32,000 nt of DNA from Candidatus Baldrarchaeum yapensis. Its GTDB lineage: Archaea; Asgardarchaeota; Baldrarchaeia; Baldrarchaeales; Baldrarchaeaceae. Where the stretch lies: NCBI GenBank assembly GCA_016840465.1, contig JAEOSH010000014.1, forward strand, positions 13,495 to 45,494, written 5' to 3'. The notes below the pieces were generated by a model. It did not search any database, was not told the DNA's origin, and was given only the letters and a program-made list of their open reading frames with translations. Positions 3,601 to 22,430 of this stretch are shown piece after piece (position 1 is the first letter of the stretch; each line of letters begins with the position of its first letter). Made by a program: the position numbers and the translations under genes.

Positions 3601-4704
3601 CTAGGTAACCACGCTGCCGAGCGCCTCTTTCTCTATAGCCTCCCGTATCTCTATCGCTATCCTCCGCCCCATGCTGATCGGCTCACCAAAGTAAAACTTG
3701 CTGTACTGACTGCCAACGCCCGCGTAGATGTTGGTGCCCCCACCGATCCGAAACGCCACGTCCACAACGTAGATCTTCAAATCGGAAGTAACTATCGATT
3801 GAAGGGTAAACGGACCAATTATCCCGGGAGGATACAACTCCTTAGCCGCCCTCACAAACGCATCCCCCATCTCGAAAACCTTCTGGAGTTGCGACTCCCT
3901 TATCGTCGCCGGCATGTGCCCTATCTCCACATTACGCACAACCACGTCCAAGTCCATCTGGATGAACGCTGGCAACCTGACGAGCCCGTGAACGTTCGTC
4001 TGCAACCTCCTATCTATCCCGTGAAACTCAACATCGCCTCTCACAACCGAGTGGAAATAATTGAAGTTGAAATCGACACCCACCACAAACTCCTCTATCG
4101 ACGCCCTCCTCAACTCCTCCTCTTCCAGTAAACCCCTCTCCATGAAGTCCCTCGCCTTCCTCCAGAAGTCCTTCGAATTCCTCGCAATGAAGAACGCCCT
4201 CTCCACAGAACCGGCCGCCATGGCCTTCACGATGACCGGTCTGTCTATCTCATCGGGAGACTTGAAGGTCTTGGGCCTGAGAATTCCGGCAGCATCAAGT
4301 ATCTTGTAGTAGTTGACTTCCCCGTACCTCTCCTCCGCCCTCAATAACTGACGAGACCCGAAAATCGGAACGTAGAACTCCTCCTCTATGCTCTCGTACC
4401 CGACGTACACAGAAAAACTTCTGTTCGGAACGAAAATCGTGTTCAGCTTCCTCAACTTGTCCTGAACGTTCTCCCTTATAATGTCCCGGAACCTCTCCAA
4501 AACTATGACCTCGTCCGCAAGCCTCCTAAACCTGAGGTACGGAAGCTCCCTCCCCTTCTGGCAAATAACAACAGTCTTGAAACCCTCGTCCTTCGCTCCG
4601 TCCAGAACGTCGAGCGCCGAGTGGCTTCCCAGCACCCCTATGTGTATGTTCTCCCAATCGTATTCCTTCTCCACAAGGGCCGCCATCTCACGGGGGGAAA
4701 TCAT
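3601..4704 (-). CDS. purP: PurP-family ATP-grasp protein, divergent paralog
   Basis: GSHSALDVLDGAK.EGF, RESQL.KVFEMG, PPGIIGPF.LQ, GGGTN and SMGRRIA.EI are present. It has PNRSF and KAMAAGSVERAFF where the canonical enzyme has PHGSF and GAKGGRGYF. SD GAGGTGG. Confidence 0.9.
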   Translation of the reverse strand: MISPREMAALVEKEYDWENIHIGVLGSHSALDVLDGAKDEGFKTVVICQKGRELPYLRFRRLADEVIVLERFRDIIRENVQDKLRKLNTIFVPNRSFSVYVGYESIEEEFYVPIFGSRQLLRAEERYGEVNYYKILDAAGILRPKTFKSPDEIDRPVIVKAMAAGSVERAFFIARNSKDFWRKARDFMERGLLEEEELRRASIEEFVVGVDFNFNYFHSVVRGDVEFHGIDRRLQTNVHGLVRLPAFIQMDLDVVVRNVEIGHMPATIRESQLQKVFEMGDAFVRAAKELYPPGIIGPFTLQSIVTSDLKIYVVDVAFRIGGGTNIYAGVGSQYSKFYFGEPISMGRRIAIEIREAIEKEALGSVVT

Positions 4705-4713
4705 AAAACCACC

Positions 4714-5733
4714 TCACGTGAGCACCTTATCGAGCATCCCATGCTCCTCCGCCATCCTTATCTCGCGCGCAATCCTCCGGCCCATGCTCATCGGCTCATC
4801 AAAATACAGCCAACTGTAGGGGGAACCGTTGATATAAAGGTTGGTGCCCGCAACTATCCTGCCTGAAAACTCAAAAATAACAATTTCGAGATCGCTCCGG
4901 CATACTCCCTCCAGACAGAAGGGACCAATAACGCCCGGCGGCACAAGTTCCTCTGCTGCCCTTACAAATCCTTCGCCGTACTCGAACACCTTTACGAGGA
5001 GGGACTCCCGAACGACAAGAGGTATGTTTCCGACAACCGTAAAGGTGGGCTCACTCAAACTATCGGCATACGGAACGGGCACCCTTCTCAGCCCATCCAC
5101 ATCACTCTCATACCTTATATCGCACCCTAAAAGCTCTAGGCGTTTCATAACAACCGAGTTAAAGTACTGAAAATACATGGGCGTGCCAATCACAAACTCC
5201 TGAATTATGCACTCATCCGGCGAAATGCCAAGACTTTTGCACTTCGAAATAACCTCCTCCGGAGACCTCGCAAGAAAGTATCCTCGCCCACCTTTCGCCC
5301 CGTGCATCTTAACAATTACGAGCCGGTCCACCTCCTCCGGAGACCTAAAAACCCTGGGCACCTTCACACCAGATCGCTCCAGCATTCTCATCTTGAGAAA
5401 CTGATCCGCCTCCCAAATCATAAGCCGCCTGTTACCGAAGATCGGAACATCCAACCTCTCAAGACCTTCAACACCAATGTACTCAACAAAACTGCCATGC
5501 GGAACTATAACTGCGCCCTCCTCGTTTAACCTCCTGATGGCCTCATCGCTGCAAACGTCCCCCATCCCATCAATCAACACAATATCGTCAATGAAGTTCA
5601 AAAATCGAGAATACAGCGAAACTCTATCCCTAGGACACAAAACTATGGTCTTAAAGCCCTCACTCTTCGCACCCCTCAGTATCTGCAATGCACTGTGGCT
5701 CGCAATCGTCGCAATACTCCGCACTTCCCGCAT
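4714..5733 (-). CDS. purP: PurP-family formate-dependent FAICAR synthetase-like protein
   Basis: IATIASHSALQILRGAK, PHGSFVEY, FGNRRL, GAKGGRGYF, YESDVDG, GNIPLVVRESLL, GPFCLE, RIVAGTN and SMGRRIAREI. Confidence 0.92.
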   Translation of the reverse strand: MREVRSIATIASHSALQILRGAKSEGFKTIVLCPRDRVSLYSRFLNFIDDIVLIDGMGDVCSDEAIRRLNEEGAVIVPHGSFVEYIGVEGLERLDVPIFGNRRLMIWEADQFLKMRMLERSGVKVPRVFRSPEEVDRLVIVKMHGAKGGRGYFLARSPEEVISKCKSLGISPDECIIQEFVIGTPMYFQYFNSVVMKRLELLGCDIRYESDVDGLRRVPVPYADSLSEPTFTVVGNIPLVVRESLLVKVFEYGEGFVRAAEELVPPGVIGPFCLEGVCRSDLEIVIFEFSGRIVAGTNLYINGSPYSWLYFDEPMSMGRRIAREIRMAEEHGMLDKVLT

Positions 5734-6265
5734 AACTTACACCTTTTTCTTATTGCCACCGCACGCAAATTTAAACTTTTGTGATAACATACGCTCAATA
5801 ACAACACGAAAGTTGCTAAAATTATGCGTAAAAAGAAGAACACCCTTATCCTCTTTATCCTCACCTCACGACCACAGTGCCAAAAACAACAAAAGTATTG
5901 TTTCGATGCTGATAAACAATCTCCAAAGCTATTTGTCGAAAAATTGATAATTTTGAATTTTCATGCGTAATACCACTTCCAAGAAGAAATAAATAAATAG
6001 ATAATCGATTCTGTCACTTTTTATCACACTCCCAGCGTTAAAGAATTTCATCAGCACACTTGCGAAGATAAACAGTCCATATGTAATGATGTACCGCCTT
6101 AAATATTATCTAGATCATTAGCACTTAACAACGGAATTTTTCGTCAAAAATTATTAGAATAAATGAAATTGTCAAACACGTCTTCAACAAATATATGCTA
6201 AATTTATCACATATTGGTCCCTCATTTTTTATACTTTTATGTGTACTGGTTCTAGGGTGTGAGCA
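5734..6265. promoter_or_regulatory. AT-rich divergent promoter region of the purine cluster
   Basis: 532-bp visibly AT-rich gap between divergent purP and purC. TATA-like TTTAAA near 5770 and TTTTATA near 6228; exact promoters not assignable. Confidence 0.6.
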
Positions 6266-7024
6266 GTGCGCCCGAAAGTATTACAGTTGATAACTGAAGG
6301 CAAGACCAAAAAGGTGTGGGAAACCGAAAATCCCGATCTTGTCATCTTGGAATTCAAAGACGATATCACTGCGTTTGATGGAGCAAAGCATGATGTCATC
6401 AGCGGAAAAGGCGCAATAAACGCCGCAATTTCAGCCAAAATTTTCGAACATCTGAACAAAAACGGAATTCCAACACATTTTGTCGAGTTTGTGGCACCCC
6501 GCTACCACGTCGTAAGACGACTAGAAATGATACCACTCGAGGTGGTATGCCGAAACATAGCCACCGGGCACCTCGTGAAAAGACTACCCATGATAAAGGA
6601 CGGAACGCGCCTCGAGTTCCCGGTACTGGAGTTCTACCTCAAAGATGACAAACTCCACGACCCCCTCATAAACGACCACCACGTCGTCCTGCTAAAGCTG
6701 GCATCTTGGAAGGAAATAGAAGAAATGAAAAAGATAACACTCCGGGTAAATGAAGTGTTGCGCACGTTCTTCGAGGAAAGAGGGCTTATTCTCGTAGACT
6801 TCAAACTCGAGTTCGGAAGAGACCGCAATGGAAAACTCCTCGTGGGCGACGAACTGAACGGAGATGCAATGCGGATCTGGGACATGTACACCGGGAAGAT
6901 ACTCGATAAGGACGTGTACCGGAAGGGATACCCCCTCGACGAAGTGCTCGTGCGATACCGCGAATTTTACAGGAGAGTGGTGGGCGCAGACTTTCCGGGG
7001 GAGGAAGTATGCCTCGCTACATAG
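6266..7024 (+). CDS. purC: SAICAR synthetase
   Basis: EGKTKKVW, FKDDITAFDG, GIPTHF, IPLEVVCRN, DFKLEFG, GDELNGD and DKDVYR. Confidence 0.97.
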   Translation: MRPKVLQLITEGKTKKVWETENPDLVILEFKDDITAFDGAKHDVISGKGAINAAISAKIFEHLNKNGIPTHFVEFVAPRYHVVRRLEMIPLEVVCRNIATGHLVKRLPMIKDGTRLEFPVLEFYLKDDKLHDPLINDHHVVLLKLASWKEIEEMKKITLRVNEVLRTFFEERGLILVDFKLEFGRDRNGKLLVGDELNGDAMRIWDMYTGKILDKDVYRKGYPLDEVLVRYREFYRRVVGADFPGEEVCLAT

Positions 7025-7275
7025 TCGAGGTCCTCATTGAAAACAAGAAGACAATACGGGATCCCGAGGGCGAAACCATCTGCCGGGAACTCATCAATAA
7101 GGGAGGATACGACAGCATAAAGTCCGTAAGGGTCGGCAAACTCCTGAGGATGGAAGTCGAGGGATCCAGCGAGGAGGAAGTGAAGGAACTCGTGACCAGA
7201 ATGTGCAACGACCTCAGAATCTACAACCCCGTCGTCCACTCCTATAGGGTGGAAATCAGAGGGATCACACGGTGA
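7009..7275 (+). CDS. purS: FGAM synthetase subunit PurS
   Basis: DPEGETI, VRVGK and NPVVHSY; 88 aa, lying between purC and purQ with overlapping ends. Confidence 0.95.
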   Translation: MPRYIVEVLIENKKTIRDPEGETICRELINKGGYDSIKSVRVGKLLRMEVEGSSEEEVKELVTRMCNDLRIYNPVVHSYRVEIRGITR

Positions 7276-7976
7276 GAGTCGCCGTTATCCGGTTTCCCGG
7301 ATCAAACTGCGACCTGGACACAGTATTCGTCCTCAGGAAGGTAATAGGCGTGAAAGCCGACCTCGTGTGGCACAAGAACTTCAAAGGAGACTACGACGCA
7401 GTGATACTGCCAGGCGGTTTCTCGTACGGGGATTACCTGCGTGCGGGAATCATCGCGGCCCACAGCCCCGCAATGAAGTACGTCAAGGAAATGGCGCGTG
7501 AGGGACTACCGGTTCTGGGCATCTGCAATGGATTCCAAATACTGATAGAGGCGGGACTTCTCCCGGGAGCGCTGATAAGAAACACGACACTGAAGTTCAT
7601 ATGCAAATGGGTTTTCCTGAAGGTCAAAACCACGCGCACCGCCTTCTCCAACCTCATGAAAAGAGAGCAGGTTCTGAAGATGCCGATCGCGCACAACGAG
7701 GGGAGGTACTTCATAGACGAGAAGGGGCTGAGGGAACTCATGGAGAACGACCAGATAGTCTTCACATACGTTGATGGGGAGGGCAACGAGACCCCGAACG
7801 CGAACCCCAACGGTTCCGTTGCAAACATCGCCGGGGTCTGCAATCTAGAGGGAAACGTCGTAGGGCTGATGCCACACCCCGAAAGGGCCTCGGAAGCCAT
7901 CCTGAGCCCCTACGGAAGCGACGACGGAAAACTTCTGTTCCTTTCCATGAAAAACTTTCTCGAGAGGTGGATGTGA
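7272..7976 (+). CDS. purQ: FGAM synthetase glutaminase subunit PurQ
   Basis: FPGSNCD, PGGFSYGDYLRAG, GICNGFQIL (catalytic Cys), PIAHNEGRY, NPNGS and GLMPHPER. Confidence 0.97.
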   Translation: MRVAVIRFPGSNCDLDTVFVLRKVIGVKADLVWHKNFKGDYDAVILPGGFSYGDYLRAGIIAAHSPAMKYVKEMAREGLPVLGICNGFQILIEAGLLPGALIRNTTLKFICKWVFLKVKTTRTAFSNLMKREQVLKMPIAHNEGRYFIDEKGLRELMENDQIVFTYVDGEGNETPNANPNGSVANIAGVCNLEGNVVGLMPHPERASEAILSPYGSDDGKLLFLSMKNFLERWM

Positions 7977-10216
7977 TGATAGTAGAGCGGCCCGACATGC
8001 AGGTTAAGGTCAACCTCACAAGGGAGGAGCTGGAAAAGGCAAAAGAGATGCTCGGGCGGGAACCCAACATTGTCGAACTCGGAATGATAGACATCATGTG
8101 GAGCGAACACTGCTCCTACAAGTCCTCCCGGGAAGTCCTGAAAATCCTGCCTAGGGAGGGGGAACACGTAATCATAGGGCCGGGACAGGACGCCGGCGTC
8201 GTGGATATAGGAAACGGGCTCGCGGTAGTTTTCAAGATAGAATCTCACAACCACCCCTCTGCGGTGGACCCCTACAACGGAGCCGCAACCGGAGTTGGAG
8301 GAATAATAAGGGACATCCTCTGCATGGGCGCCCGCCCCATCGCCCTCGTCGACTCCCTCAGGTTCGGATTCCCCTCCAGCCCCCACGCCAGGTGGCTGTT
8401 CAGATACGTCGTTAAGGGAATCGCAGATTACGGAAACTGCACCGGGATTCCAACGGTAGCAGGTCAGGTGGAGTTTGACCCCTCCTTCGAGAGAAATTGC
8501 CTTGTCAACGTCGGCTGCGTGGGAATTGCAAGGAAAGACAGAATAATGCCAAGCGTTGCCTCAAACCCTGGGGACGTCCTCGTCCTCGTCGGGGGCTCCA
8601 CCGGAAGAGATGGAATCCACGGCGTCACCTTCGCATCCAAAACCCTCAGCGAAAAATCCGAGGAGGAGAGGTCCTCCGTACAAATAGGAGATCCCTTCAT
8701 GAAAAAACTGGTGATCGAGGCGACGCTGGAGGCCGTGGAGACGGGATATGTAAGGGGACTGAAGGATCTGGGAGGCGGAGGACTGACGTGCGCAACTTCC
8801 GAGATGGCCGCAAAGGGCGGAACCGGGGTGGAAATAGAACTTTCTAAGGTCCACCTCAGAGAGGAGGGAATGACCCCCTACGAGATAATGCTGAGCGAGT
8901 CGCAGGAGCGCATGCTCTTCGTTGTAGATCCAAAAGGTCTCGATAAAGTACTGTCGGTGTTCGAAAAGTACGAGATTCCGTACTCAATAATAGGAAGAGT
9001 CACCGACACCAGAGAGGTCGTCGTCAAACTGAACGGAAAAGTGGTGGCGCGGGTTCCGGCAAAGCTACTTGCCGAAGCCCCCCTTGCAAAGCGCACATCT
9101 AAAAAGCCAGCATACGTCGAGAAGTTGCGTGACATACCACCTCCGCCAATGCCGGAAAACCTCGAAGAAACCCTTCCTCAACTCCTCTCATCACCTAACA
9201 TTGCAAGTAAGGAGTGGGTATACCAGCAGTACGACCACGAGGTCGGAATAAGAACCGTAGTAAAGCCGGGACAGGCAGATGCAGCCGTCCTCAGAATCAT
9301 AGAGGAAGATGGAGGAAACAGGGGAATCGCAATAAAGGCTGACTGCAACTCGAGGCATATGTATCTGGATCCGTTCAACGGCGCCGCCGGTGCTCTGGCA
9401 GAATGCTGCAGGAATATAGTTGCAGTTGGAGGAAAACCACTGGCCTTTGTCGACTGCGCAAACTTTGGCAACCCCGAAAAACCCGAAATATTCTGGCAGT
9501 TCGAAATGGCAATCAAGGGTCTCGCATACATGGCCCGAGGTCTGGGAATACCATGCGTGGGCGGAAATGTCAGCTTCTACAATGAAGATGAAACCACAGG
9601 GAGGGCGGTGAAACCGAGCACCGAGGTCCTAGCAATCGGGCTGGTTGAGGACCTCAAACACGTGACAACAATGGCATTCAAATCTGCGGGAGACGTAATC
9701 GTCGTGGTGGGTAAGACCTTCAGAGAGGTGGGCGGATCGGAATACTACTACATAGTCCACGGGATAGAGGGAGGAAAAGTACCCGCTGCCGATCCGAATA
9801 GGGAGAAGTCCTCCATGAACGCCGTTTTGGAGGGAATAAGGCGCGGATACGTCACCGCTGCTCATGACATTTCGAGAGGGGGATTTGCGGTCGCGCTCGC
9901 AGAAATGGCAATCCAAGGAGGAAGAGGAGCGGAGGTCTTCTTGGACAATATGCCGCGGGAACCCATGCGCATCGACGAACTCCTCTACTCGGAGAGCAAC
10001 GCAAGATTCATCATCACGGTCGAGGAAAAAAACCTCGATAACTTCATATCACTATGCCGCAACACCGGCGCACCCTTCGGGATAATTGGAAGGGTTTCGA
10101 GAAGTAACAGGCTCATTCTCAGGTACGAGAGCCTTGTTCTCGAGTATGATGTCCACCACCTGGAGAAAGCTTGGAAGATGCCAATATGGGAGTACATGGA
10201 GGGGCTGCGCTCGTGA
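7976..10216 (+). CDS. purL: FGAM synthetase subunit PurL (small form)
   Basis: MWSEHCSYKSS, ESHNHPS, GRDGIHG, DLGGGGL, SESQERM, QYDHEV, GGNVSFYN and HDISRGG. ATG 7976 follows SD GAGGTG; GTG 7967 is an alternative. Confidence 0.97.
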   Translation: MIVERPDMQVKVNLTREELEKAKEMLGREPNIVELGMIDIMWSEHCSYKSSREVLKILPREGEHVIIGPGQDAGVVDIGNGLAVVFKIESHNHPSAVDPYNGAATGVGGIIRDILCMGARPIALVDSLRFGFPSSPHARWLFRYVVKGIADYGNCTGIPTVAGQVEFDPSFERNCLVNVGCVGIARKDRIMPSVASNPGDVLVLVGGSTGRDGIHGVTFASKTLSEKSEEERSSVQIGDPFMKKLVIEATLEAVETGYVRGLKDLGGGGLTCATSEMAAKGGTGVEIELSKVHLREEGMTPYEIMLSESQERMLFVVDPKGLDKVLSVFEKYEIPYSIIGRVTDTREVVVKLNGKVVARVPAKLLAEAPLAKRTSKKPAYVEKLRDIPPPPMPENLEETLPQLLSSPNIASKEWVYQQYDHEVGIRTVVKPGQADAAVLRIIEEDGGNRGIAIKADCNSRHMYLDPFNGAAGALAECCRNIVAVGGKPLAFVDCANFGNPEKPEIFWQFEMAIKGLAYMARGLGIPCVGGNVSFYNEDETTGRAVKPSTEVLAIGLVEDLKHVTTMAFKSAGDVIVVVGKTFREVGGSEYYYIVHGIEGGKVPAADPNREKSSMNAVLEGIRRGYVTAAHDISRGGFAVALAEMAIQGGRGAEVFLDNMPREPMRIDELLYSESNARFIITVEEKNLDNFISLCRNTGAPFGIIGRVSRSNRLILRYESLVLEYDVHHLEKAWKMPIWEYMEGLRS

Positions 10217-11646
10217 TTTCTAAATGCATGGAGAAATGCGGCGTCATAGGAGTATATTCTAGGAACGCCGGAGACTCTCAGTGTGCCAGGAGAATATATG
10301 AGGGGCTCGTCGCACTGCAACATAGGGGGCAGGAGAGCGCGGGAATCTACATGTTTAGCGGAGATGGGAGGATAGCGGGGATCAAGGGATCGGGGCTCGT
10401 CACGGAGGTATTCAGCGCCAAGAGCCTAGAGTTGCTAAAGGGATCAGTGGGAATAGGACACGTCAGATATAGCACAACGGGTACCGGAACCACCGATGAA
10501 ATCCAACCGTTCTTCGTGAGAGAGGGAAGGTTCTCATTCGCCCTCGCGTTCAACGGGACGATTACGAACTTTGCAGAAGTGCGGAAGTGGCTCAGAAATC
10601 AAGGATTTTACTTCAAAACCAACACGGACACCGAGGTGCTTGCAAAAACAATAGCGTTCTATCTCTCCGAAGAGGGCTATGACTACTTCGCGGCACTCGA
10701 AAGAACCATGGAGGCGCTGGACGGGGCTTTCTCGGTAGTGCTTATCAACGAGAAGGGAGAGATGCTGGGGATGAGAGATCCCAGGGGATTCAAACCTCTG
10801 TGCCTCGGAGCAACATCGGATCCAGAAATGTACATCTTAGCTTCCGAGAGCGTCGCAATAGACGCCCTGCATGGTTTCCTCCTCGGCGACGTCTACCCAG
10901 GTGAGATTATCAGAATATCGGACGGCGTTGTCGAACGAAAAGTTGCGTGCAAGTCAGAAAAACACTCCCACTGCATGTTCGAGTACGTCTACTTTGCAAG
11001 GGAAGACTCCATAATCGAGGGGATCCATGTATACAATGTCAGGTGGAGACTAGGAGCTATACTCTCAGAACTGTATCCCACCGACGCAGACTACGTAATA
11101 CCCGTTCCGGACACGGGAATAGTCCCCGCCATAGGATTCTCCCAAGCCTCAGGAATTCCGCTGGCTTACGGCCTCGTGAGGAACAAGTACGTTGGGCGCA
11201 CGTTCATAATGCCACAGCAACAGATGAGGGAGGGAGCGGTCCGGGTAAAACTCGGGGTCATAAGATCAGTGGTTTCGGGGAAAAGGATGGTGGTCGTCGA
11301 TGACAGCATCGTCAGGGGAACCACCTCCAAGTTCATCGTAGAACTCCTGAAAAGCTTCAACGCGGCAAAGGTGCACCTCAGAATCTGCTGCCCGCCCATA
11401 GTCTCCCCGTGCTACATGGGAATAGACTTCCCATCCCATAAGGAACTCATAGCATCCAAGATGGACGTGGAAGGTGTCAGGAGGTTCATAGGAGCCGATT
11501 CCCTTGGCTACATGACAATAGACGGGCTTGTCCGCGGAATCGGACTTCCAAAGGGAGAGTTGTGTTTGGCGTGCCTCACCGGGGAATACCCGCTAAAGCG
11601 CCCGGAGGATGTCGACAAGCTGGAGGAGATATTCAAGAGGGGGTGA
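10213..11646 (+). CDS. purF: Amidophosphoribosyltransferase (canonical)
   Basis: Propeptide then CGVIG (Ntn Cys1), LQHRGQE, GHVRYST, FNG, DPRGFKPL, CMFEYVYF, VDDSIVRGTT, PCYMGID and CLAC. Start is GTG 10213 (4-bp overlap with purL) or ATG 10228. Confidence 0.96.
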   Translation: MISKCMEKCGVIGVYSRNAGDSQCARRIYEGLVALQHRGQESAGIYMFSGDGRIAGIKGSGLVTEVFSAKSLELLKGSVGIGHVRYSTTGTGTTDEIQPFFVREGRFSFALAFNGTITNFAEVRKWLRNQGFYFKTNTDTEVLAKTIAFYLSEEGYDYFAALERTMEALDGAFSVVLINEKGEMLGMRDPRGFKPLCLGATSDPEMYILASESVAIDALHGFLLGDVYPGEIIRISDGVVERKVACKSEKHSHCMFEYVYFAREDSIIEGIHVYNVRWRLGAILSELYPTDADYVIPVPDTGIVPAIGFSQASGIPLAYGLVRNKYVGRTFIMPQQQMREGAVRVKLGVIRSVVSGKRMVVVDDSIVRGTTSKFIVELLKSFNAAKVHLRICCPPIVSPCYMGIDFPSHKELIASKMDVEGVRRFIGADSLGYMTIDGLVRGIGLPKGELCLACLTGEYPLKRPEDVDKLEEIFKRG

Positions 11647-11650
11647 TGTT

Positions 11651-12985
11651 TTGAGCGGGATTTTCGGAATTTTCGCGTTTGATGAGATATGGCGCGTTTC
11701 CAAATTCGTATATTACGGACTCCTGGCCCTCCAAACAAGAGGCCAGGAGGTTTGTGGAATAGCGTGTGGAGGATCGGACGGAATAGTAACATGTGCAAAG
11801 AGGGGCTACGTCGATCAATCCTTCAAGGAGAATGAGTTAGAAGGAATAGGCGGATGGTACGGCATCGGCTACGTGGGCGCGGACCCCCAAAATGTACAAC
11901 CCGTGACGGTCCGCCATAACGGCATCACCGTTTCCGTCTGCTATTCCGGGAGAATATTTAACCTGCGGGAGCTCACGAAAAGGTACAATCTCCCGGAAAA
12001 GGAAAACGAAAGCATACTGTTTGCGAAGATTCTGGCATCGGAAGTTAGAAAGAGTGGTCCCATGAACGCCGCCGCGCTTCTGATGGAAGAACTTGAGGGT
12101 GTGTACACGGTGCTGGCAATAACAGACCAAAAGGAGATGGTTGCCTTCAGAGATTCACATGGCGTGAAGCCGCTGACAATCGGGAGTTATGGATTCGATT
12201 ATGGAGCAATAGCATCCGAAAGCGCAGGACTAGAAGTCATAGGCGCCGACTACAAGTCCGACATCATGCCAGGCGAGATATACCTCTTTACAAGCTACAG
12301 CATAGAAAGAGAGCAGGTGAGAGCTCCACAACCGAAATACTGCGCATTCGAGTACGTGTACTACGCCCGCCCCGACTCCATAATAAACGAGAAGTCGGTG
12401 TACGATGTAAGGGTGAAAATAGGCGAGTACCTCGCAAAGGAGAGCCCCGTTGACGTGGATGTTGTCGTAGGTGTGCCTGAAACGGCAATACCCTTCGCAA
12501 TGGCGTATTCAAATGCCACCGGAACACCCATAGCCATGGGATTCATGAGAACGGGGCGCCACACAAGAACCGCAATAAAGCCCACGTACTTCGAGAGACT
12601 CGTGGGGGTGCAGCTGAAGCTTAACCCCATAAAGAGCGTGTTCTCCGGCAAAAGGGTCCTGATAATCGACGACAGCGTCGTGAGGGGAACCACAATGAAG
12701 AACGTAATACACCTTCTCAGAAACAAGATGGGGGCCAAGGAGGTGCATGTGAGGATCGGTAGCCCCCGACTCGTGAACCCCTGCCCCTACGGAACCGAGG
12801 TCCCCACCCGCGACGAACTGATAGCCGCAAACCTGAGCGAGGAGGAGGTCGCAATAGTCACCGGCGCGGACTCCTTCAAGTGGCTCTCGATAGACTCCCT
12901 CATCAAAGCGATCGGATTTCCACGCGAGTACCTCTGCCTTAGGTGTTTTGGAGGTGATGGGGATGAAGGTCCTACTCATAGGTAG
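11651..12985 (+). CDS. purF: PurF paralog lacking the glutaminase nucleophile
   Basis: TTG start after SD GGGGTGA gives MSGIFG instead of CGxxG. LQTRGQE; the GHVRYST equivalent is degenerate. PRTase motif IDDSVVRGTT and Fe-S cysteines (CAFEYVY, PCPYG, CLRC) are retained. Confidence 0.9.
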   Translation: MSGIFGIFAFDEIWRVSKFVYYGLLALQTRGQEVCGIACGGSDGIVTCAKRGYVDQSFKENELEGIGGWYGIGYVGADPQNVQPVTVRHNGITVSVCYSGRIFNLRELTKRYNLPEKENESILFAKILASEVRKSGPMNAAALLMEELEGVYTVLAITDQKEMVAFRDSHGVKPLTIGSYGFDYGAIASESAGLEVIGADYKSDIMPGEIYLFTSYSIEREQVRAPQPKYCAFEYVYYARPDSIINEKSVYDVRVKIGEYLAKESPVDVDVVVGVPETAIPFAMAYSNATGTPIAMGFMRTGRHTRTAIKPTYFERLVGVQLKLNPIKSVFSGKRVLIIDDSVVRGTTMKNVIHLLRNKMGAKEVHVRIGSPRLVNPCPYGTEVPTRDELIAANLSEEEVAIVTGADSFKWLSIDSLIKAIGFPREYLCLRCFGGDGDEGPTHR

Positions 12986-14438
12986 TGGATCACGTGAGCA
13001 CGCAATTGCGGACGCCCTTGCCAGAAGCGTGCATGAGCCGAAGATTTTCGCAGTAATGTCAAATAGAAATCCCGGCATTATCAGGATCTGTGAGAGCACG
13101 GGAGGAGAGTACTTCATCGGAAAGATCACAGACCCCCAATTTGTCAGAGAAATAGGAGAAAGAGTATCCCCCGACTTCGCGTTCATCGGACCGGAAGAAC
13201 CCCAGTTCCATGGAGTATCCGATGCACTTGAGGAGGCGGGCATTCCGTGTGTCGGCGCAAGGGAGAAACTTAGTGAGATAGAGAGGTCGAAGGCATTCAT
13301 GAGGAGGCTCATGTGGAAGTACAGGATACCCGGAAGGCTAAGGTTCAAAGCATTCAAGAACGTGGAGGAGGCGATCGCCTACATCAAGGAGTACGCCGAA
13401 AGCATCGCACTAAAGCCGGCAAGGCAGGCGGGAGGCAAGGGAGTCAAGGTGATCGCGGACATACAGGCGTACCTCAGGAGGGAGAGGACCGAGGTCAAGG
13501 AGAAGCATGCAAAGAAGATCTACGAGGAGCACATGAAACCGTACGACGACATAGAGGACAAAATACTGATAGAGGAGAAGGTCGACGGGCCGGAGTACAC
13601 CCTCCAGTGCTTCACCGATGGAAGGACGGTGCTCCCCCTGCCCCTGGTCCAAGACAATAAGAACGCCTTCGAGATGGACATAGGGCCGGAAACCGGCGGG
13701 ATGGGGTCGATATCGGGGAAGGGCTTTCTACTACCATTCATTGAGGAGGATGAGTTCCGAGAGTCAGTGAAAATAGTGGAATCCGTGGTGAGGGCCCTAG
13801 AGAAGGAGTTCGGCATGAGATATCACGGCGTGATCTCCGGTCAGATGATGCTCACCGCCCTCTGGGGACCCACGATCATAGAATTCTATTCCCGGTTCGG
13901 AGACCCCGAGGGCGTGAACGTCCTCCCGATACTCAAAACCGACCTCGTCGAAATATCCGAGGCAGTAATCTCGGAGAAACTCCACAAGATGAAGATAGAG
14001 GTGGAGGAGAAGGCAACCGTCGTCAAGGCAATAGCCCCTCAGGGATACCCCAACAGGAGAGATCTCGCAAAGGGGCACCCGATAGCCGTGGACGAAAGGG
14101 CAATAGAGGAGCAGGGAGCAAGGGTCTTCTACGGCTCCGTGAACGTCGATAACGGAAGGTTGATAACTGGTGGCTCACGCGCCGTGGAGATATTCGCATG
14201 CGCCGAAACAATAGAGGAGGCGAGCAAGATCGTGGATAAATGCGTTAAGTACGTTAGATGCCTGGACGGATGGGGGCTCTTCTACAGAAGTGACATAGGC
14301 TCGAGCACCCTCCTGCACAGGAGAATGGAACTCGCAGAGCTGGTGAGGAACGTCTACCGCTACAGGAGGTCCAAGGGCATCATCGGGATCAAGATAGACT
14401 GGATTCCCGGAGTTGGAAAAATAGTGTACGAGAGCTGA
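12963..14438 (+). CDS. purD: Phosphoribosylamine--glycine ligase (GAR synthetase), long archaeal form
   Basis: KVLLIGSGSREHAI, GPEEP, SKAFMR, GGKGVKV, IEEKVDGPE, GPETGGMG, RFGDPE and GGSRA. ATG 12963 follows SD GGAGGTGA. Confidence 0.96.
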   Translation: MKVLLIGSGSREHAIADALARSVHEPKIFAVMSNRNPGIIRICESTGGEYFIGKITDPQFVREIGERVSPDFAFIGPEEPQFHGVSDALEEAGIPCVGAREKLSEIERSKAFMRRLMWKYRIPGRLRFKAFKNVEEAIAYIKEYAESIALKPARQAGGKGVKVIADIQAYLRRERTEVKEKHAKKIYEEHMKPYDDIEDKILIEEKVDGPEYTLQCFTDGRTVLPLPLVQDNKNAFEMDIGPETGGMGSISGKGFLLPFIEEDEFRESVKIVESVVRALEKEFGMRYHGVISGQMMLTALWGPTIIEFYSRFGDPEGVNVLPILKTDLVEISEAVISEKLHKMKIEVEEKATVVKAIAPQGYPNRRDLAKGHPIAVDERAIEEQGARVFYGSVNVDNGRLITGGSRAVEIFACAETIEEASKIVDKCVKYVRCLDGWGLFYRSDIGSSTLLHRRMELAELVRNVYRYRRSKGIIGIKIDWIPGVGKIVYES

Positions 14439-14449
14439 GGTGCGTGGCA

Positions 14450-15532
14450 ATGGCTAAGGATAGGGTTAGGGTTGCAGCGATCCAGATATACATGCACGGG
14501 GTCCCGAGCGAGGAGAGGTGGAGAAAGCACATCCACTGGATGAATGAGGCGGTGAGGCTCGGTGCGGACCTCATATGCACGACGGAGTTTTTCCTGGGAG
14601 GCGAAACTTACTGGAGAAAGGAGAGAATAGAGTTCTTCAGGAACTTCTGCAAAGAGAATGGGGTGTACGTCGCGGCGCACTCCTACCAGAGGGTCAAGTT
14701 GGATGGAGACAAGCGGGTGACCAAGAGCAGAATAATATTCTTCGCCCCCGGTGGCGAAATCATCGGAACCTTCGACAAAGTGCATCTCTACCCCACCGAT
14801 GTCCACTTGGCACGCGCGACGCAGGGTACCGACTTCCCGGTGTTCGACACCAAAATTGGAAAAATAGGGTTTGGGGTCTGCGAAGACCTCATGATCCCGG
14901 AACACATACGATGCCTCAGGTCAAGAGGCGCCGAAATAGTGATAATCCCGAGCAGAATGCCGGGGAACTATCTCGTCTGCTGGAAGGATGTCGCAGTTGT
15001 GAGGGCAATAGAGAGCTGCGTCTACATAGTGACAATAGGGGAGGCGGGAATGCACGCGGTGGGGACCCTCGCGGTGAGCCCGCGCCTCGATAATCCAATA
15101 GTTGCCGAAATGGGTCCCCACGAGGGCGTGATGATCGCAGACCTGGATCTCGCATGGCTCAGGTCCGAGCGCAATCGGAAACCAGTACTCGATCAACTCA
15201 GGAAAAAGGAGGATGTCGAGGAACTTTCCGTGAAGACGAAGGTCCACGACTTCGTTTTTAGGCTTGAGGACTGGCAACCTGAGCTGTACATTCCGGTGTA
15301 CGCGGCGGCAAGCATCGACAAGAGGGTCAGGATGTTTTCGGAGAAGGGGATATGGGTCGAAAGGGAGGTTGTGGAGAGGTTGCTGGACACCTACAGCCGA
15401 CTGATGACTGTGGTAGCCCAAATAGAGGAGATCGCTGACGAGAACCTCAAGGTGCGGCTGCCATCGATCGCGGTAATAAAAAGCGATTTTGAATTCTTAA
15501 AACGCCTCTTAGAGGTGCTGAAGGGTGAGTGA
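14450..15532 (+). CDS. Carbon-nitrogen hydrolase (nitrilase superfamily) with C-terminal extension
   Basis: [17 protein letters not shown] (Glu), FDKVHLY (Lys), [11 protein letters not shown] (Cys), VRAIE and [18 protein letters not shown] overlaps the purD stop, and the stop codon overlaps the purE start by 8 bp. Confidence 0.9.
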
Positions 15533-15971
15533 GGAGATAGAAGTCGCAATAGTAATGGGAAGTAAAAGTGATGAGCACGTTGCCAAAAAGGCGGCTGACG
15601 CCCTTTCTGAGTTGGGGATAAAGTACGAAGTTAAGATCCTTTCCGCCCACAGAAACCCCGATGAACTGCGTGAATACATCAGAAAATGCAAAGCTAAGGT
15701 TTTCATCGCAATAGCCGGGCTTTCGGCACACCTTCCCGGATTCATAGCATCACACACCGATAAACCGGTGATAGGAGTCCCCGTTAACGTACAACTCGGC
15801 GGACTCGATGCCCTTCTTTCCATGGTCCAGATGCCCCCGGGTGTGCCAGTAGCGACCGTGGGAATAGACAATGGCAGAAACGCCGCACTTCTCGCCGCAA
15901 GAATACTCGCATTGTTCGATGAAAGGATAAAGAGAAAGTTGGAGGAGGCGAAAAGTGAGAGGAGAGGGTAG
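15525..15971 (+). CDS. purE: AIR carboxylase / N5-CAIR mutase
   Basis: [59 protein letters not shown]. Confidence 0.97.
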
Positions 15972-17037
15972 CGGGTGGACGTACGCAAAAGCGGGTGTCG
16001 ATGAAGGGAAGGTTTCCAAAGCCTTATCCGGAGTTTGGAAGATGCTCATAGAGACCTTTGATTTTAGAAAGGGAAGAAAAGCTCACCCCTTGAACGTGAT
16101 AGGGCACTACGCTGGACTATTAGATGTGGGAACGGACGTCCTGCTGGCATTGCACGTAGACGGAGTGGGCTCAAAGGTTCTAGTGGCGCAAATGCTGAAC
16201 AAATACGACACGGTGGGTATAGACCTCGTGGCGATGCACGCAAACGACCTCATATCGATAGGGGCCGAGCCGGTGGCACTCGTAGATTACCTAGCTGTTA
16301 AGGAACCCGACGAGCAACTCATCCAAGAAGTCATGAAGGGAGTCGTGGAAGGGGCAAAGATCGCGAGAATGTGCGTGATAGGAGGAGAAACGGCGGTATT
16401 GCCAGACGTAATCACCGGATACGAGAGCGGCAAGCCATTTGACCTTTCGGGGATGAGCCTGGGCGTCGTTGAGAGGGATAAGGTCATACTGGGAGATAAG
16501 GTCGAGGTGGGAGACGCCGTGATAGGGCTCGCGAGCAGTGGGATCCACTCCAACGGTCTCACACTTGCAAGGAGGGTTCTCTTCGAGGAGGCGAAAATAC
16601 CACCCTCCGCGTACATTGAGGAGTTGAGGAAAACACTAGGGGAGGAGTTACTCACTCCCACGAGGATATACGTTGACGAGGTGCTGAGCATTTTAGAAAG
16701 CGGAATAGAAGTTCACGGGCTGGCGCACATAACGGGTGGCGCGTTCACAAAGCTGAAGAGGATCTCGAGAGGAAGGGTCAGGATAAGGCTGGATAAGATG
16801 CCGGAGCCTCAGCCGATATTTAAGATGATACAGCGCCTGGGAAATGTCGAAACGGAGGAAATGTACAGGACGTTCAATATGGGAATCGGATTCGTAATAG
16901 TGGCGCCGCGGCGGGAGATTGAGAACATATCATCGGTACTGGAGGAAAAGAGAACTACATACTACGTCCTTGGCCGAGTTGAAAGCGGATCCGACATCGT
17001 CATAAGAGCGTATGATGGAACCCTCATTGTTTTCTGA
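15955..17037 (+). CDS. purM: AIR synthetase (FGAM cyclo-ligase)
   Basis: [42 protein letters not shown] and [10 protein letters not shown]. Confidence 0.97.
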
Positions 17038-19456: not shown

Positions 19457-20406
19457 TCAACACTTGCAGAGCAGATCCACAACCTCAGAAACCGTCCTTA
19501 CTTTCTCTAGGTTCTCTATGGTCCTTATGACCTCCCTCACCCTTTCATTCCCCAACACGCCGGATGCCTCCCTCGAAAACCTCTCCTCCGCGGGATAAGG
19601 ATTCCCTGCCGCACCCACCGGAACCTCACACTCGGCCGACAGCACCTCACCGTTCCTCAGTTTCACCTTCACCCTCGCGCCGAACGGCATCTTAAGCGTT
19701 GATAGCAACAAGCCCGGCATCAACTCCACCCTCACCTTCTCCATAAGCATCCAAACATCGGAGTCAAGGGCTCTCTCAACCGTAAGATCCTGAGGACTGA
19801 CCGATCCACGAAGCAGCGCAACCGCAACGTTGAACGGTGTGTAAAAGTTCAGAGCAACGGACGACCGAAATCTCTTCACCCATTCTGGATTTGCAAAGAG
19901 ACGGGCAAGGTCATCCATAAGGAGGGTCATGAAGTGAACGTAAACAACGATCTCCTCCACCTCCTTCGGCTTTATCTTCCTCTTACGGGAGATTTCAGTC
20001 GCGCAGTCTATCACGGCGCTCACATACGCGCACCCCGGGTGCACCTTTATCGAGAGGGTGTCCGTAACCTAAGCTTCCCCTAAATCGTTGCTCAACATCG
20101 AGACAATTGCTCCATCCGCCACCAGATTGCAGAAGCCTATAGGATGCCCCAGAACGTCGGGAGCCGCCGTGAAACCCCCTCGGCAAGTCTGGCTGCCATT
20201 ACCCCCAGCATCGCCGGAACCGCCAACGTCAAAACCTTAGTATGAGGGCCCATGAAACCCCTGATCGCTATGAACGTCGCCTGGTACGCCGCAATACCTA
20301 TGGCGTTCCTAATCCTCTCTTTGTCCAATCCCAGGAGCCGAGAAGCCGCACACGCCGACCCTATCAGGTGAACGTAGTTCCAAAGCTGACCGTTGTGTAC
20401 CCCTTC
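19457..20406 (-). pseudogene. prpD: MmgE/PrpD-family (2-methylcitrate dehydratase-like) relic
   Basis: Stitched translation: HLIGSACAASRLLGLDKERIRNAIGIAA...AARLAE, then a frameshift near 20175-20180, then GFTAAPDVL...LGEA*VTDTLSIKVHPGCAY with an in-frame TAG at 20070-20072, then PFGARVKVKLRNGEVL...PVGAAGNP. The N-terminal third is absent. Confidence 0.8.
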
Positions 20407-20642
20407 TCAAGATCCAAGAGAGCACCTAATCGAACTCATAATCACGTATAAAGCACGGGAATTCTCTCGCGACCATCAACATGCTTAAATATAACACCGT
20501 TGTACAGTATTTCGGTTACTTATCTGTGTGTTTCTAACTTTTTGTGGTCATGTCGGATTTTCATGCTGTTAAGTGCCGGCAAACTGTCCCATAAACCTCT
20601 ACGTCCCTGAAGGAAAATTTCAGAAGTAAGAAGTACTATTTT

Positions 20643-21236
20643 ATGAGTGGTGACAGCGTTGAGACCTCTGAGAGTCTTGATTCAAATAATAGACTTCGAG
20701 GAGTTCCATTCGGGGCGCCTCTCGAGGAATGCAGATACGTTGAGGCGAGAGCACTAGTAGATACGGGTGCCCTTTACATGTTTGTCCCGGAGAATGTCTT
20801 AAAGGTTGACAATGGAAGCCTGACGTTCTCAAGGAGGGTTGCCGAAAATCGGCCTCCTGAGTCCTTAATAAGAGCAACTATGGGCGGAACTCTTCCGTAT
20901 CCCCTTGTAGAACTGGTAGTTTCCATGCGCGTGGGGGAGAAGGCGGTTGCCGGAACTGCGACCGCGGTCATCGCGCCAGCGGATCTGGGGAATTGGCTAT
21001 TCATCGACAACTTCAGGAGGGCGGTACAATTATGGGGGAGGGAGCGGGGCATGGATTACGGGGAGGCGGTTCAGGAGTTGTGTAGAAAGTACGAGGAGAC
21101 AATAAATAAATGTGTTGCGCAAGATGGGAATAGACTGCATAATAGGTCTGAGCACACTGGACTCTCTAGGATTAACGGTTTCCGAGGGAGAATTAAACTC
21201 TCCACCGGGGCTTTATTCTATTGTAGTGCTACATAA
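20643..21236 (+). CDS. Putative retropepsin-like (clan AA) aspartic protease
   Basis: ALVDTGA motif at 20751-20771 preceded by a beta-strand (YVEARA). The second motif is only weakly visible. Confidence 0.55.
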   Translation: MSGDSVETSESLDSNNRLRGVPFGAPLEECRYVEARALVDTGALYMFVPENVLKVDNGSLTFSRRVAENRPPESLIRATMGGTLPYPLVELVVSMRVGEKAVAGTATAVIAPADLGNWLFIDNFRRAVQLWGRERGMDYGEAVQELCRKYEETINKCVAQDGNRLHNRSEHTGLSRINGFRGRIKLSTGALFYCSAT

Positions 21237-21443
21237 GTAAGAGCACTGACACACGCCAGCGCGTAACACTGACATTTCGTCATATGGTTCTGGACAATGC
21301 GGATCCTCCCACGTTCTAACTTAATTTTTCAAAGAGTGCAGATGCGGGATAGAGTGAGTATTACAACCGCGCCCCTCCCCAGCATTCTTGCCAAAAATTT
21401 GTAAACTTCTGATGTGACACTCCTCAAACCCTACTTACCCTAC

Positions 21444-22430
21444 TTAATATTTATTTTTATTTTTCTCTGTTTTCTCCTCCTCGGGCATCAGGCCGAACGA
21501 CTTCTCGTATTTAAGCATCACTTCCTCCTTGGGCAGGTACTCCTTTTCGTACTCTAAGAACTTGGAAAGACCCCCGACCTCGAACAATTTCACAAGCGTT
21601 CCCAACGGATGCTCCTTAATTTTCTCCTCGATCTCTATCTGCGCCTGGGTACCCTTCTTTATCAACTCCTGATAGAAGTTCCAGACCGCAACTGCCTCGA
21701 CCTGCAGTGGAGTTATCGGGAACACCACGGAAACTACGCCCAGCTTCTTGCACTCCTCTATAGACAGCCTAGGCGATAAGCCGGTCGGGTGATAAGCAAC
21801 GGGCGCCTTCACCTCTTTTACAACCCTTCTGATCTCCTCCTTGCTGAGGAGAACATCCGAGCAGACGACATCTGCACCGGCGGCGACGTACGCCTTCAGC
21901 CTCTTTATCACCTCTTCAAGCCCTCCCCCTACTGCGTTCCTCGCATCGGTCCTCGCAACCAGAATTATGTTGTCATCCTCCTCCTTTATCACCCTCTTCG
22001 CCGCCTTTATCTTCCCCACCATCTCCTCTATCGATATCAGCATCTTGCCCTTGAGATGACCACACCTTTTGGGTTGCACCTGATCCTCTATATGCAGAGC
22101 GGCAACTCCCGCGCGTATGTACTCCCTGACGGTCCGCATCACGTTTATTGCGTTTCCATATCCCGTCTCTGCATCTGCAATCACCGGAAGCTTTGTGGCG
22201 GCGGTGATGCACCTTACGTTCTCCACCATTTCGGTAGCGGTGATGAGCCCAATATCTGGGAGCCCATACCTCTCCAGGGATGTGCACGCGCCCGAAACGT
22301 AGACCGCCTTGAACCCCGCCATCTCCGCCAGCTTTGCAAAGAGGGCATTGTGAGCGCCGACCACTATTAATGGGTTATGTTCACGATCTTCCAGAAGTTT
22401 TCGGAGCCTAGCACTGGGGGACAGGCGCAT
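21444..22430 (-). CDS. prpB: Isocitrate lyase/PEP mutase family lyase, methylisocitrate lyase-like
   Basis: GAHNALFAK, GFKAVYVSG, GLPDIGL, ADAETGYG, HIEDQVQPKRCGH, ARTDA and AGAD. SD GAGGTGG. Exact substrate uncertain. Confidence 0.88.
   Translation of the reverse strand: MRLSPSARLRKLLEDREHNPLIVVGAHNALFAKLAEMAGFKAVYVSGACTSLERYGLPDIGLITATEMVENVRCITAATKLPVIADAETGYGNAINVMRTVREYIRAGVAALHIEDQVQPKRCGHLKGKMLISIEEMVGKIKAAKRVIKEEDDNIILVARTDARNAVGGGLEEVIKRLKAYVAAGADVVCSDVLLSKEEIRRVVKEVKAPVAYHPTGLSPRLSIEECKKLGVVSVVFPITPLQVEAVAVWNFYQELIKKGTQAQIEIEEKIKEHPLGTLVKLFEVGGLSKFLEYEKEYLPKEEVMLKYEKSFGLMPEEEKTEKNKNKY

Follow-up and report, generated by a model that had tools for sequence, protein, structure and literature searches.

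Which enzyme carries out the third step of purine synthesis, the formylation of glycinamide ribonucleotide (GAR) to formylglycinamide ribonucleotide (FGAR), in Candidatus Baldrarchaeum yapensis? We analysed a stretch of 32,000 nucleotides from this Asgard archaeon (contig JAEOSH010000014.1, positions 13,495 to 45,494; referred to as the window), which carries a divergent purine cluster with a nitrilase-fold gene between purD and purE. PurT, PurN, Ftr2 and an EhaR-like HAD protein were searched for in the source genome (G000; 96% complete, 100 contigs) and were not found. A missing step-3 enzyme has been reported for several archaea since 2011 (PMC3261824; restated in PMC9012536). An earlier note on this DNA had overlooked this gap, that is, the failure to find a GAR formyltransferase in G000 together with a nitrilase in the usual slot of that gene. 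We tentatively favour the explanation that purT was supplanted at its site by a formyltransferase of the nitrilase fold, which would work through a cysteine thioester and cover step 3.

The slot after purD

The gene that follows purD was recorded for 39 distinct PurD groups. It is purE in 13 of them, PurT in nine, PurN or glyA-folD-purN in two, Ftr2 or EhaR in nine (a class in which seven loci had been fetched because of the Ftr2 lead) and purS in two, with another gene or the contig end in the remaining four. All nine purD-X-purE arrangements, from loci that were fetched independently of the idea, have a step-3 gene between purD and purE: PurT in seven cases, PurN in one and EhaR plus EhaT in one, of which eight are established and one is a candidate. 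In the PurD tree, G000 stands beside a group of five rows that all show the order purD-purT (SH-aLRT, an approximate likelihood ratio test, 89, which is under the starred level for this quick tree), and the PurF' proteins of that group begin like the one in the window (MSG-x-x-GIFAF). This pattern of gene order and phylogeny suggests that purT was replaced in place by the nitrilase in this lineage. The ancestor would most likely have had purT after purD, and the nitrilase-fold enzyme would have taken over the slot.

The nitrilase thus shares with PurT and PurN its place in the operon, after purD and before purE, and it is predicted to share their reaction as well. The folds are unrelated. In a test for GAR formyltransferase families, the protein proved to be neither a Formyl_trans_N protein nor a PurT-type ATP-grasp enzyme, and instead of ATP or folate it would use a formyl-cysteine and an N-formyl amide donor.

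One related locus (L092) has an unrelated peptidase after purD. This observation fits another explanation, namely that the nitrilase is a passenger: an amidase of unrelated substrate that landed after purD, benefits from the operon promoter and has stayed. Step 3 would then be carried out by an unassembled gene, by a moonlighting canonical Ftr or by whatever enzyme serves the other genomes with a gap, and the cluster would be of an ordinary known type. We regard this as unlikely, if still a serious rival. The exact purT/purN position of the relatives and the tight coupling on both sides argue against it.

Layout of the purine cluster

A PurP-like pair on the minus strand diverges from purC-purS-purQ-purL-purF-purF'-purD-X-purE-purM on the plus strand (6266-17037), where X is the nitrilase. 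The features are as follows.

3601..4704, minus strand: PurP-like, cluster II of Brown 2011 (PurP III of Zhang); PF06849 and PF06973; PDB 2r7k, E 1e-96
4714..5733, minus strand: PurP-like, cluster Ia/Ib, candidate formate-dependent 5-aminoimidazole-4-carboxamide ribonucleotide (AICAR) formyltransferase; PF06849 and PF06973; KGGRG, Asn258; 2r7k, E 1e-100; PF1517, E 6e-99
5734..6265, no strand: AT-rich divergent intergenic region with the presumed promoters of both units; from the sequence, with lower GC in the 5001-7000 windows
6266..7024, plus strand: purC, succinyl-AICAR (SAICAR) synthetase; TIGR00081, 232 bits, above cut-off
7009..7275, plus strand: purS; TIGR00302, 68 bits, above cut-off
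7272..7976, plus strand: purQ, glutaminase subunit with intact triad motifs (GICNG and HPER); TIGR01737, 318 bits
7976..10216, plus strand: purL; TIGR01736, 995 bits
10228..11646, plus strand: purF, canonical glutamine-dependent amidophosphoribosyltransferase with Cys at residue 4; TIGR01134, 457 bits; alignment
11651..12985, plus strand: purF', the Cys-less PurF paralog of Brown 2011; TIGR01134, 318 bits, under cut-off; alignment
12963..14438, plus strand: purD, GAR synthetase; TIGR00877, 376 bits
14450..15532, plus strand: nitrilase-fold (CN hydrolase) enzyme, 360 amino acids (aa), with a helical C-terminal extension; PF00795, triad and model fold
15525..15971, plus strand: purE; TIGR01162, 192 bits
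15955..17037, plus strand: purM, aminoimidazole ribonucleotide (AIR) synthetase; TIGR00878, 378 bits

All cluster genes are intact open frames, the distance at their junctions ranging from -23 to +11 bp, and the two PurP-like genes lie 9 bp apart. Between the purD stop and the start of the nitrilase gene lie 11 bp, and the nitrilase and purE frames share 8 bp. A bacterial-type scan, which is weak evidence for archaeal DNA, gave no terminator-like site on the plus strand between 13900 and 17400. In line with the earlier note, the nitrilase looks like part of the operon, where it is probably co-transcribed with its neighbours, and it also looks long resident there. An assembly artefact was ruled out, as independent assemblies show identical gene order. 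Other genomes of the phylum have a cluster layout in common with loci named Freyarchaeota and Jordarchaeia.

The nitrilase protein

The catalytic triad (E46/K110/C144) is intact and is conserved in at least 90% of 95 aligned rows. The structure model adopts the nitrilase sandwich fold, with a predicted local distance difference test (pLDDT) score of 81 overall and mostly 87-99 over residues 1-240, and in a Foldseek search this model matched carbamoylases and Nit2 at E 1e-22. The C-terminus carries an additional helical tail, about 75 residues long; residues 251-302 model poorly, and a search with the tail (255-360) gave no informative match.

The closest solved relatives by PDB ranking are Pyrococcus amidases and Nit2. 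The fold and the triad are shared with the formamidase AmiF, with Nit2 omega-amidase and with amidases of the Pyrococcus PH0642/PAB1449 type, the structural alignments giving 20-25% identity to Nit2 and the Pyrococcus enzymes. The window protein differs from all of these in that it scores far under every family cut-off and belongs to a small separate subfamily with a PSRMP motif. An identity as formamidase was rejected: the AmiF model (PRK13287) gives 21.3 bits against a cut-off of 406, no formamidase is among the 25 PDB sequence hits, and formamidase ranks about 22nd by the subfamily profile. The glutaminase of glutamine-dependent NAD synthetase was likewise rejected (24 bits against 479, and no linkage to PurF' in 58 loci). 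A word-based homolog search returned only the nitrilase itself and remote relatives; an exhaustive search recovered the subfamily, which occurs in 7 of 301 Asgard genomes and in 4 of 401 genomes of the Thermoproteota group. G000 encodes three nitrilases besides that of the window, one of them nearer to the Nit2 and deaminated-glutathione amidase families. A second nitrilase, of a more typical kind, is encoded on contig C84 in overlap with a GlyA-like gene (L150:5929-7913); the totals for the genome are four nitrilases and two GlyA-like genes.

Position and profiles lead us to predict that the window enzyme works as a GAR formyltransferase. Glu46 would activate Cys144, which would attack an N-formyl amide donor to give a formyl-thioester. 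GAR freshly made by PurD would then be formylated at its primary amine. The whole would be a ping-pong transacylation resembling that of Lnt. The latter is the apolipoprotein N-acyltransferase of the nitrilase superfamily, which transfers an acyl group from a thioester to an amine (PMC5500890). It shares the Glu-Lys-Cys triad and provides a precedent for the ping-pong course, a likeness that is mechanistic only, since Lnt is a membrane enzyme that moves fatty acyl chains whereas the window nitrilase is soluble and not a member of the Lnt family.

Judging from gene content, the likeliest donor would come from the methanopterin one-carbon (C1) route, as 5-formyl-tetrahydromethanopterin (5-formyl-H4MPT) or formylmethanofuran; formamide is also possible. 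Genes of the donor pathway are present in G000, which has a methanopterin C1 cluster with cdhA, ftr and mtd, in addition to purB and guaA. Its single Ftr is canonical and sits in this cdh-mtd-fwd C1 cluster.

If this reading is correct, the organism passes step 3 of purine synthesis without folate or ATP, with a new fold and a new chemistry in a core ancient pathway. The nitrilase superfamily would gain a small-molecule formyl-transfer member. The reach would be small, as the junction occurs in two species, and the gap in Archaeoglobales or Methanobacteriales would not be explained.

Conservation and relatives of the nitrilase

The purD-nitrilase junction, including its 11-bp spacing, is kept in a second species, seen on a metagenome contig of 598 bp (L144), where PurD is 86% and the nitrilase 64% identical to the G000 proteins. 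Between the two species, the proportion of nonsynonymous differences in the nitrilase gene (pN) is 0.13 and that of synonymous differences (pS) 0.87. The GC content at third codon positions (GC3) is 0.705, compared with 0.696 for purD. Because the junction is shared, pN is far below pS and GC3 matches that of the neighbours, the nitrilase appears to be old in its slot and under purifying selection. A recent foreign insertion or a decaying gene was ruled out by GC3 and pN/pS. That the junction has outlasted synonymous saturation between the two species also speaks against a passenger.

The sole full-length relative of the nitrilase is P0030 (357 aa, 34% identical). It is flanked by an EhaR-like HAD protein (hhalign 96%, E 4e-9; Atlas EhaR cluster 0.95) and by a PfkB protein that is 40% identical to the PfkB of the G005 purine cluster; the PfkB neighbour recurs. 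The EhaR-like HAD gene, P0030 and PfkB stand in a row at L142:6947-10051 (JGI Ga0366834_1005944) and at L219 (GCA_030616615.1). P0030 occupies the place that Ftr2 has in the order purD-EhaR-Ftr2-EhaT of G022. The Ftr2/EhaR-EhaS-EhaT trio (PMC3087415, PMC9012536) is found after purD in Asgard families that lack PurN and PurT; here a relative of the nitrilase sits between the EhaR- and EhaT-like genes. G000 differs in that its nitrilase stands alone and has a different fold, and neither Ftr2 nor an EhaR-like HAD protein was found there, so the EhaR-EhaS(Ftr2)-EhaT module is not recognized in this genome. The position of P0030 is another point against a passenger. With still more reserve, we consider that the nitrilase could represent a new class of GAR formyltransferase, fed by a methanopterin- or methanofuran-bound formyl carrier, which replaced PurT in this lineage while a relative replaced Ftr2 in the EhaR-X-EhaT trio.

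A phosphatase-X-kinase trio would also fit a repair cycle. The nitrilase may accordingly dispose of or repair a side product or stalled intermediate of purine synthesis (for example an omega-amide arising in glutamine turnover or a mis-formylated nucleotide), perhaps as its EhaR/EhaT-flanked relatives do, and the nearest characterised proteins are indeed of the Nit2 omega-amidase and deaminated-glutathione amidase types. We consider such a role quite improbable: one of the three other nitrilases of G000 is closer to those families, the gap at step 3 would be left unfilled, and no such gene is present in 76 related loci.

Step 3 in other Asgard genomes

Among 177 Asgard genomes with PurD, 158 have PurN or Ftr2 (131 with PurN, 27 with Ftr2 only) and 19 have neither; kin are not independent in this count, the thresholds are our own, and PurT was searched for in 41 genomes only. 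The two family f19 genomes that were inspected among these 19 have purT directly after purD, several others are incomplete, and six of family f23 are unexplained. Ftr2 is encoded directly after or near purD in the PurN-less genomes G015, G025, G035, G022, G041 and G057, often together with the EhaR-like HAD gene and an EhaT-like PfkB gene. It is present in all genomes of families f3 (4/4), f13 (3/3), f20 (3/3) and f27 (11/11) and in three of the five of f15, with no PurN in any of these families, and also in 36 of 68 f9 genomes, where PurN is mostly present. In families f3, f13 and f15, Ftr2 and the EhaR/EhaT-like genes directly follow purD at L156:6554-7582 (minus strand), L037:6688-7746 (minus), L207:1788-4798 (plus) and L036:5429-7454 (minus). 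Ftr2 is a candidate GAR formyltransferase for archaea in which this enzyme has been missing.

Several observations weigh against the replacement of purT by a nitrilase-fold formyltransferase. The role of Ftr2 is itself unproven; it is a lead and not support. Two genomes (G041 and G057) have Ftr2 beside purD and, in addition, two nitrilases of the subfamily elsewhere, and another (G027) has a subfamily nitrilase and no PurD; because of these patterns, some other function must be assumed for the subfamily as a whole. About 15 other contexts of subfamily members, from Asgard archaea, Thermoproteota and metagenomes, are without pur genes (the contigs of P0032 and of one P0034 are too short to show gene context). 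The nitrilase tree places the window enzyme with the P0030 group in a clade (support 99/95) that includes non-purine members, without singling out a sister. The sister placement of PurD rests on the SH-aLRT value and the quick tree mentioned above, and the junction is known from two species only. Literature searches turned up no nitrilase-fold formyltransferase. In family f23, where purD stands alone, six of the seven genomes (one of them closed; L234 G212, L235 G088) have PurD but neither PurN nor an Ftr2 better than E 1e-60, and this nitrilase is absent too, PurT not having been searched for there. Finally, the G000 assembly is incomplete. The non-purine neighbours, the gap shared by f23 and the incomplete assembly are also what would be expected if the nitrilase were a passenger.

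The PurP pair and PurF'

Apart from the nitrilase, the genes of the cluster are not unusual. The 339-aa PurP (4714-5733) aligns with a KGGRG P-loop and a GNIP motif that puts Asn at position 258. In the 367-aa copy (3601-4704), the loop is longer, ends in VERAFF and lacks GG(K/R)G, and a GHMP motif puts His at the Asn258 position. Clusters Ia/Ib are defined by a (K/R)GG(K/R)G P-loop with Asn at Methanocaldococcus jannaschii position 258, and cluster II by a longer glycine-less loop with His at that position (PMC3261824). By these motifs, the two PurPs are ordinary members of known clusters. Copies of clusters Ib and II are often adjacent (PMC3261824), and such a pair has been counted in 61 genomes (PMC6486802). 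Formate- and ATP-dependent synthesis of formyl-AICAR (FAICAR) has been demonstrated only for MJ0136, the Pyrococcus furiosus Ib and II proteins being inactive alone (PMC3261824, PMC6486802). The 4714-5733 protein is a candidate formate-dependent AICAR formyltransferase, and the cluster II copy has a putative role linked to the last two purine steps. An adjacent PurP pair is also present in G027 (C1:123949-125622), a genome (91% complete) in which neither PurF nor PurD was found, as in the Korarchaeum of Brown 2011; this fits a late-step or salvage role of the pair.

PurF' starts with MSGIFG, without the Cys, and has lost the GHVRYST and NG motifs while keeping IDDSVVRGTT. Like the paralog defined by Brown 2011, it lacks the N-terminal Cys and lies beside a canonical purF. 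Orthologs with 48-60% identity are in tandem with purF in seven other genomes. Those of G010 and G039 (L027:11452-12801, L028:11448-12791) have lost GHVRYST and kept an N-terminal Cys-Gly, so loss of the Cys does not define the PurF' clade. Since PurF' also occurs in the folate-using genomes G010, G039 and G017, which have PurN, PurH and FolD, it is no marker of folate independence.

In every crenarchaeon studied, a canonical PurF and a Cys-less PurF' are encoded close together (Brown 2011, PMC3261824). The window shares with the crenarchaeal clusters (PMC3261824, PMC6486802) the tandem purF/purF' and the adjacent PurP pair with its diagnostic loop and its Asn/His-258 split. PurO was not found in G000, as in crenarchaea, and with neither PurH nor PurO found in either case the gene for inosine monophosphate (IMP) cyclohydrolase is unassigned. 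The difference lies in step 3: crenarchaea have PurT (Sulfolobales) or PurN (Thermoproteales), whereas neither was found here and the slot holds the nitrilase. This Asgard archaeon thus has a folate-independent purine cluster of the crenarchaeal type. Its PurF+PurF' and PurP Ib+II are known features, and the one unusual substitution is the nitrilase.

The earlier note had read two PurPs, a glutaminase-dead PurF and an embedded C-N hydrolase as three anomalies of one divergent cluster, and had proposed a folate-independent pathway with a built-in supply of formate and ammonia. All these genes are present and intact. Two of the three supposed anomalies, the PurP pair and PurF', are published features that are expected in this cluster type, so their co-occurrence is unsurprising and only the nitrilase stands out. 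Folate independence was borne out, as searches of G000 with positive controls found no PurN, PurU, PurH, FolD or Fhs; a pathway of this type had already been described (PMC3261824, PMC6486802). The phylogenetic profiling that the note had set as a test gave no co-occurrence and ruled out a three-gene system of PurPs, PurF' and nitrilase. Among 76 related purine loci, PurF' is present in 58 (27 distinct PurD groups) and the nitrilase in none, with the window protein itself scoring 227 bits as the positive control of the profile. PurP pairs are widespread without the nitrilase subfamily.

Nitrilase-fold glutaminases exist, and the window enzyme could in principle supply ammonia to PurF' as a glutaminase or amidase partner, much as the nitrilase domain does in glutamine-dependent NAD synthetase. 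The use of ammonia by PurF' had already been suggested as a hypothesis by Brown et al. 2011 (PMC3261824). We judge this role very improbable. None of the 58 PurF' loci has a nitrilase, PurF' also occurs in folate-using genomes, the NAD synthetase model scores far under its cut-off, and the nitrilase gene adjoins purD, not purF'. The adjoining PurF retains its Cys, and with an intact PurQ triad and an intact glnA on the same contig (above cut-off) no ammonia supplier is needed.

The formate part of the proposal fared differently. Although release of formate by a formamidase does not agree with the family score (21 bits against 406) or with the PDB ranking, which puts Nit2 and the Pyrococcus amidases first, another formate-releasing role would be conceivable. 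The nitrilase might act as a deformylase on an N-formyl compound such as 5-formyl-H4MPT or formylmethanofuran and release formate for PurP, in the way that PurU serves PurT. Enzymes of this fold hydrolyse by default, and G000 combines the PurP pair with the methanopterin C1 route, PurU not being found. In some archaea, PurU-like genes are grouped with pur genes, and their products have been proposed to feed PurP; most formate-using archaea, however, are without PurU (PMC3261824). Many genomes with a PurP pair lack the nitrilase, and step 3 would stay unexplained with PurT not found. We therefore regard a deformylase as improbable.

Other observations

The window also contains a stand-alone C-terminal piece of MmgE/PrpD (195 aa) near a PrpB/phosphoenolpyruvate (PEP)-mutase-like gene (19457-22430); the N-terminal part is apparently missing in several assemblies. 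The contig of the window (C72) has 50.8% G+C, compared with 42-49% for the other large contigs of G000, and in the four order-mates of this genome no genes of de novo purine synthesis were found. Lateral transfer may have brought in the purine cluster.

A flavoprotein of about 460 aa is encoded after purE in clusters of the G010/G020/G039 type (L027:14763-16142 and equivalents). In G000, a copy with 60% identity lies outside the purine cluster (C67:23818-25176); the genome also encodes a second PurE-like protein (C61:39990-40412; 36% identical), which is possibly LarB-like.

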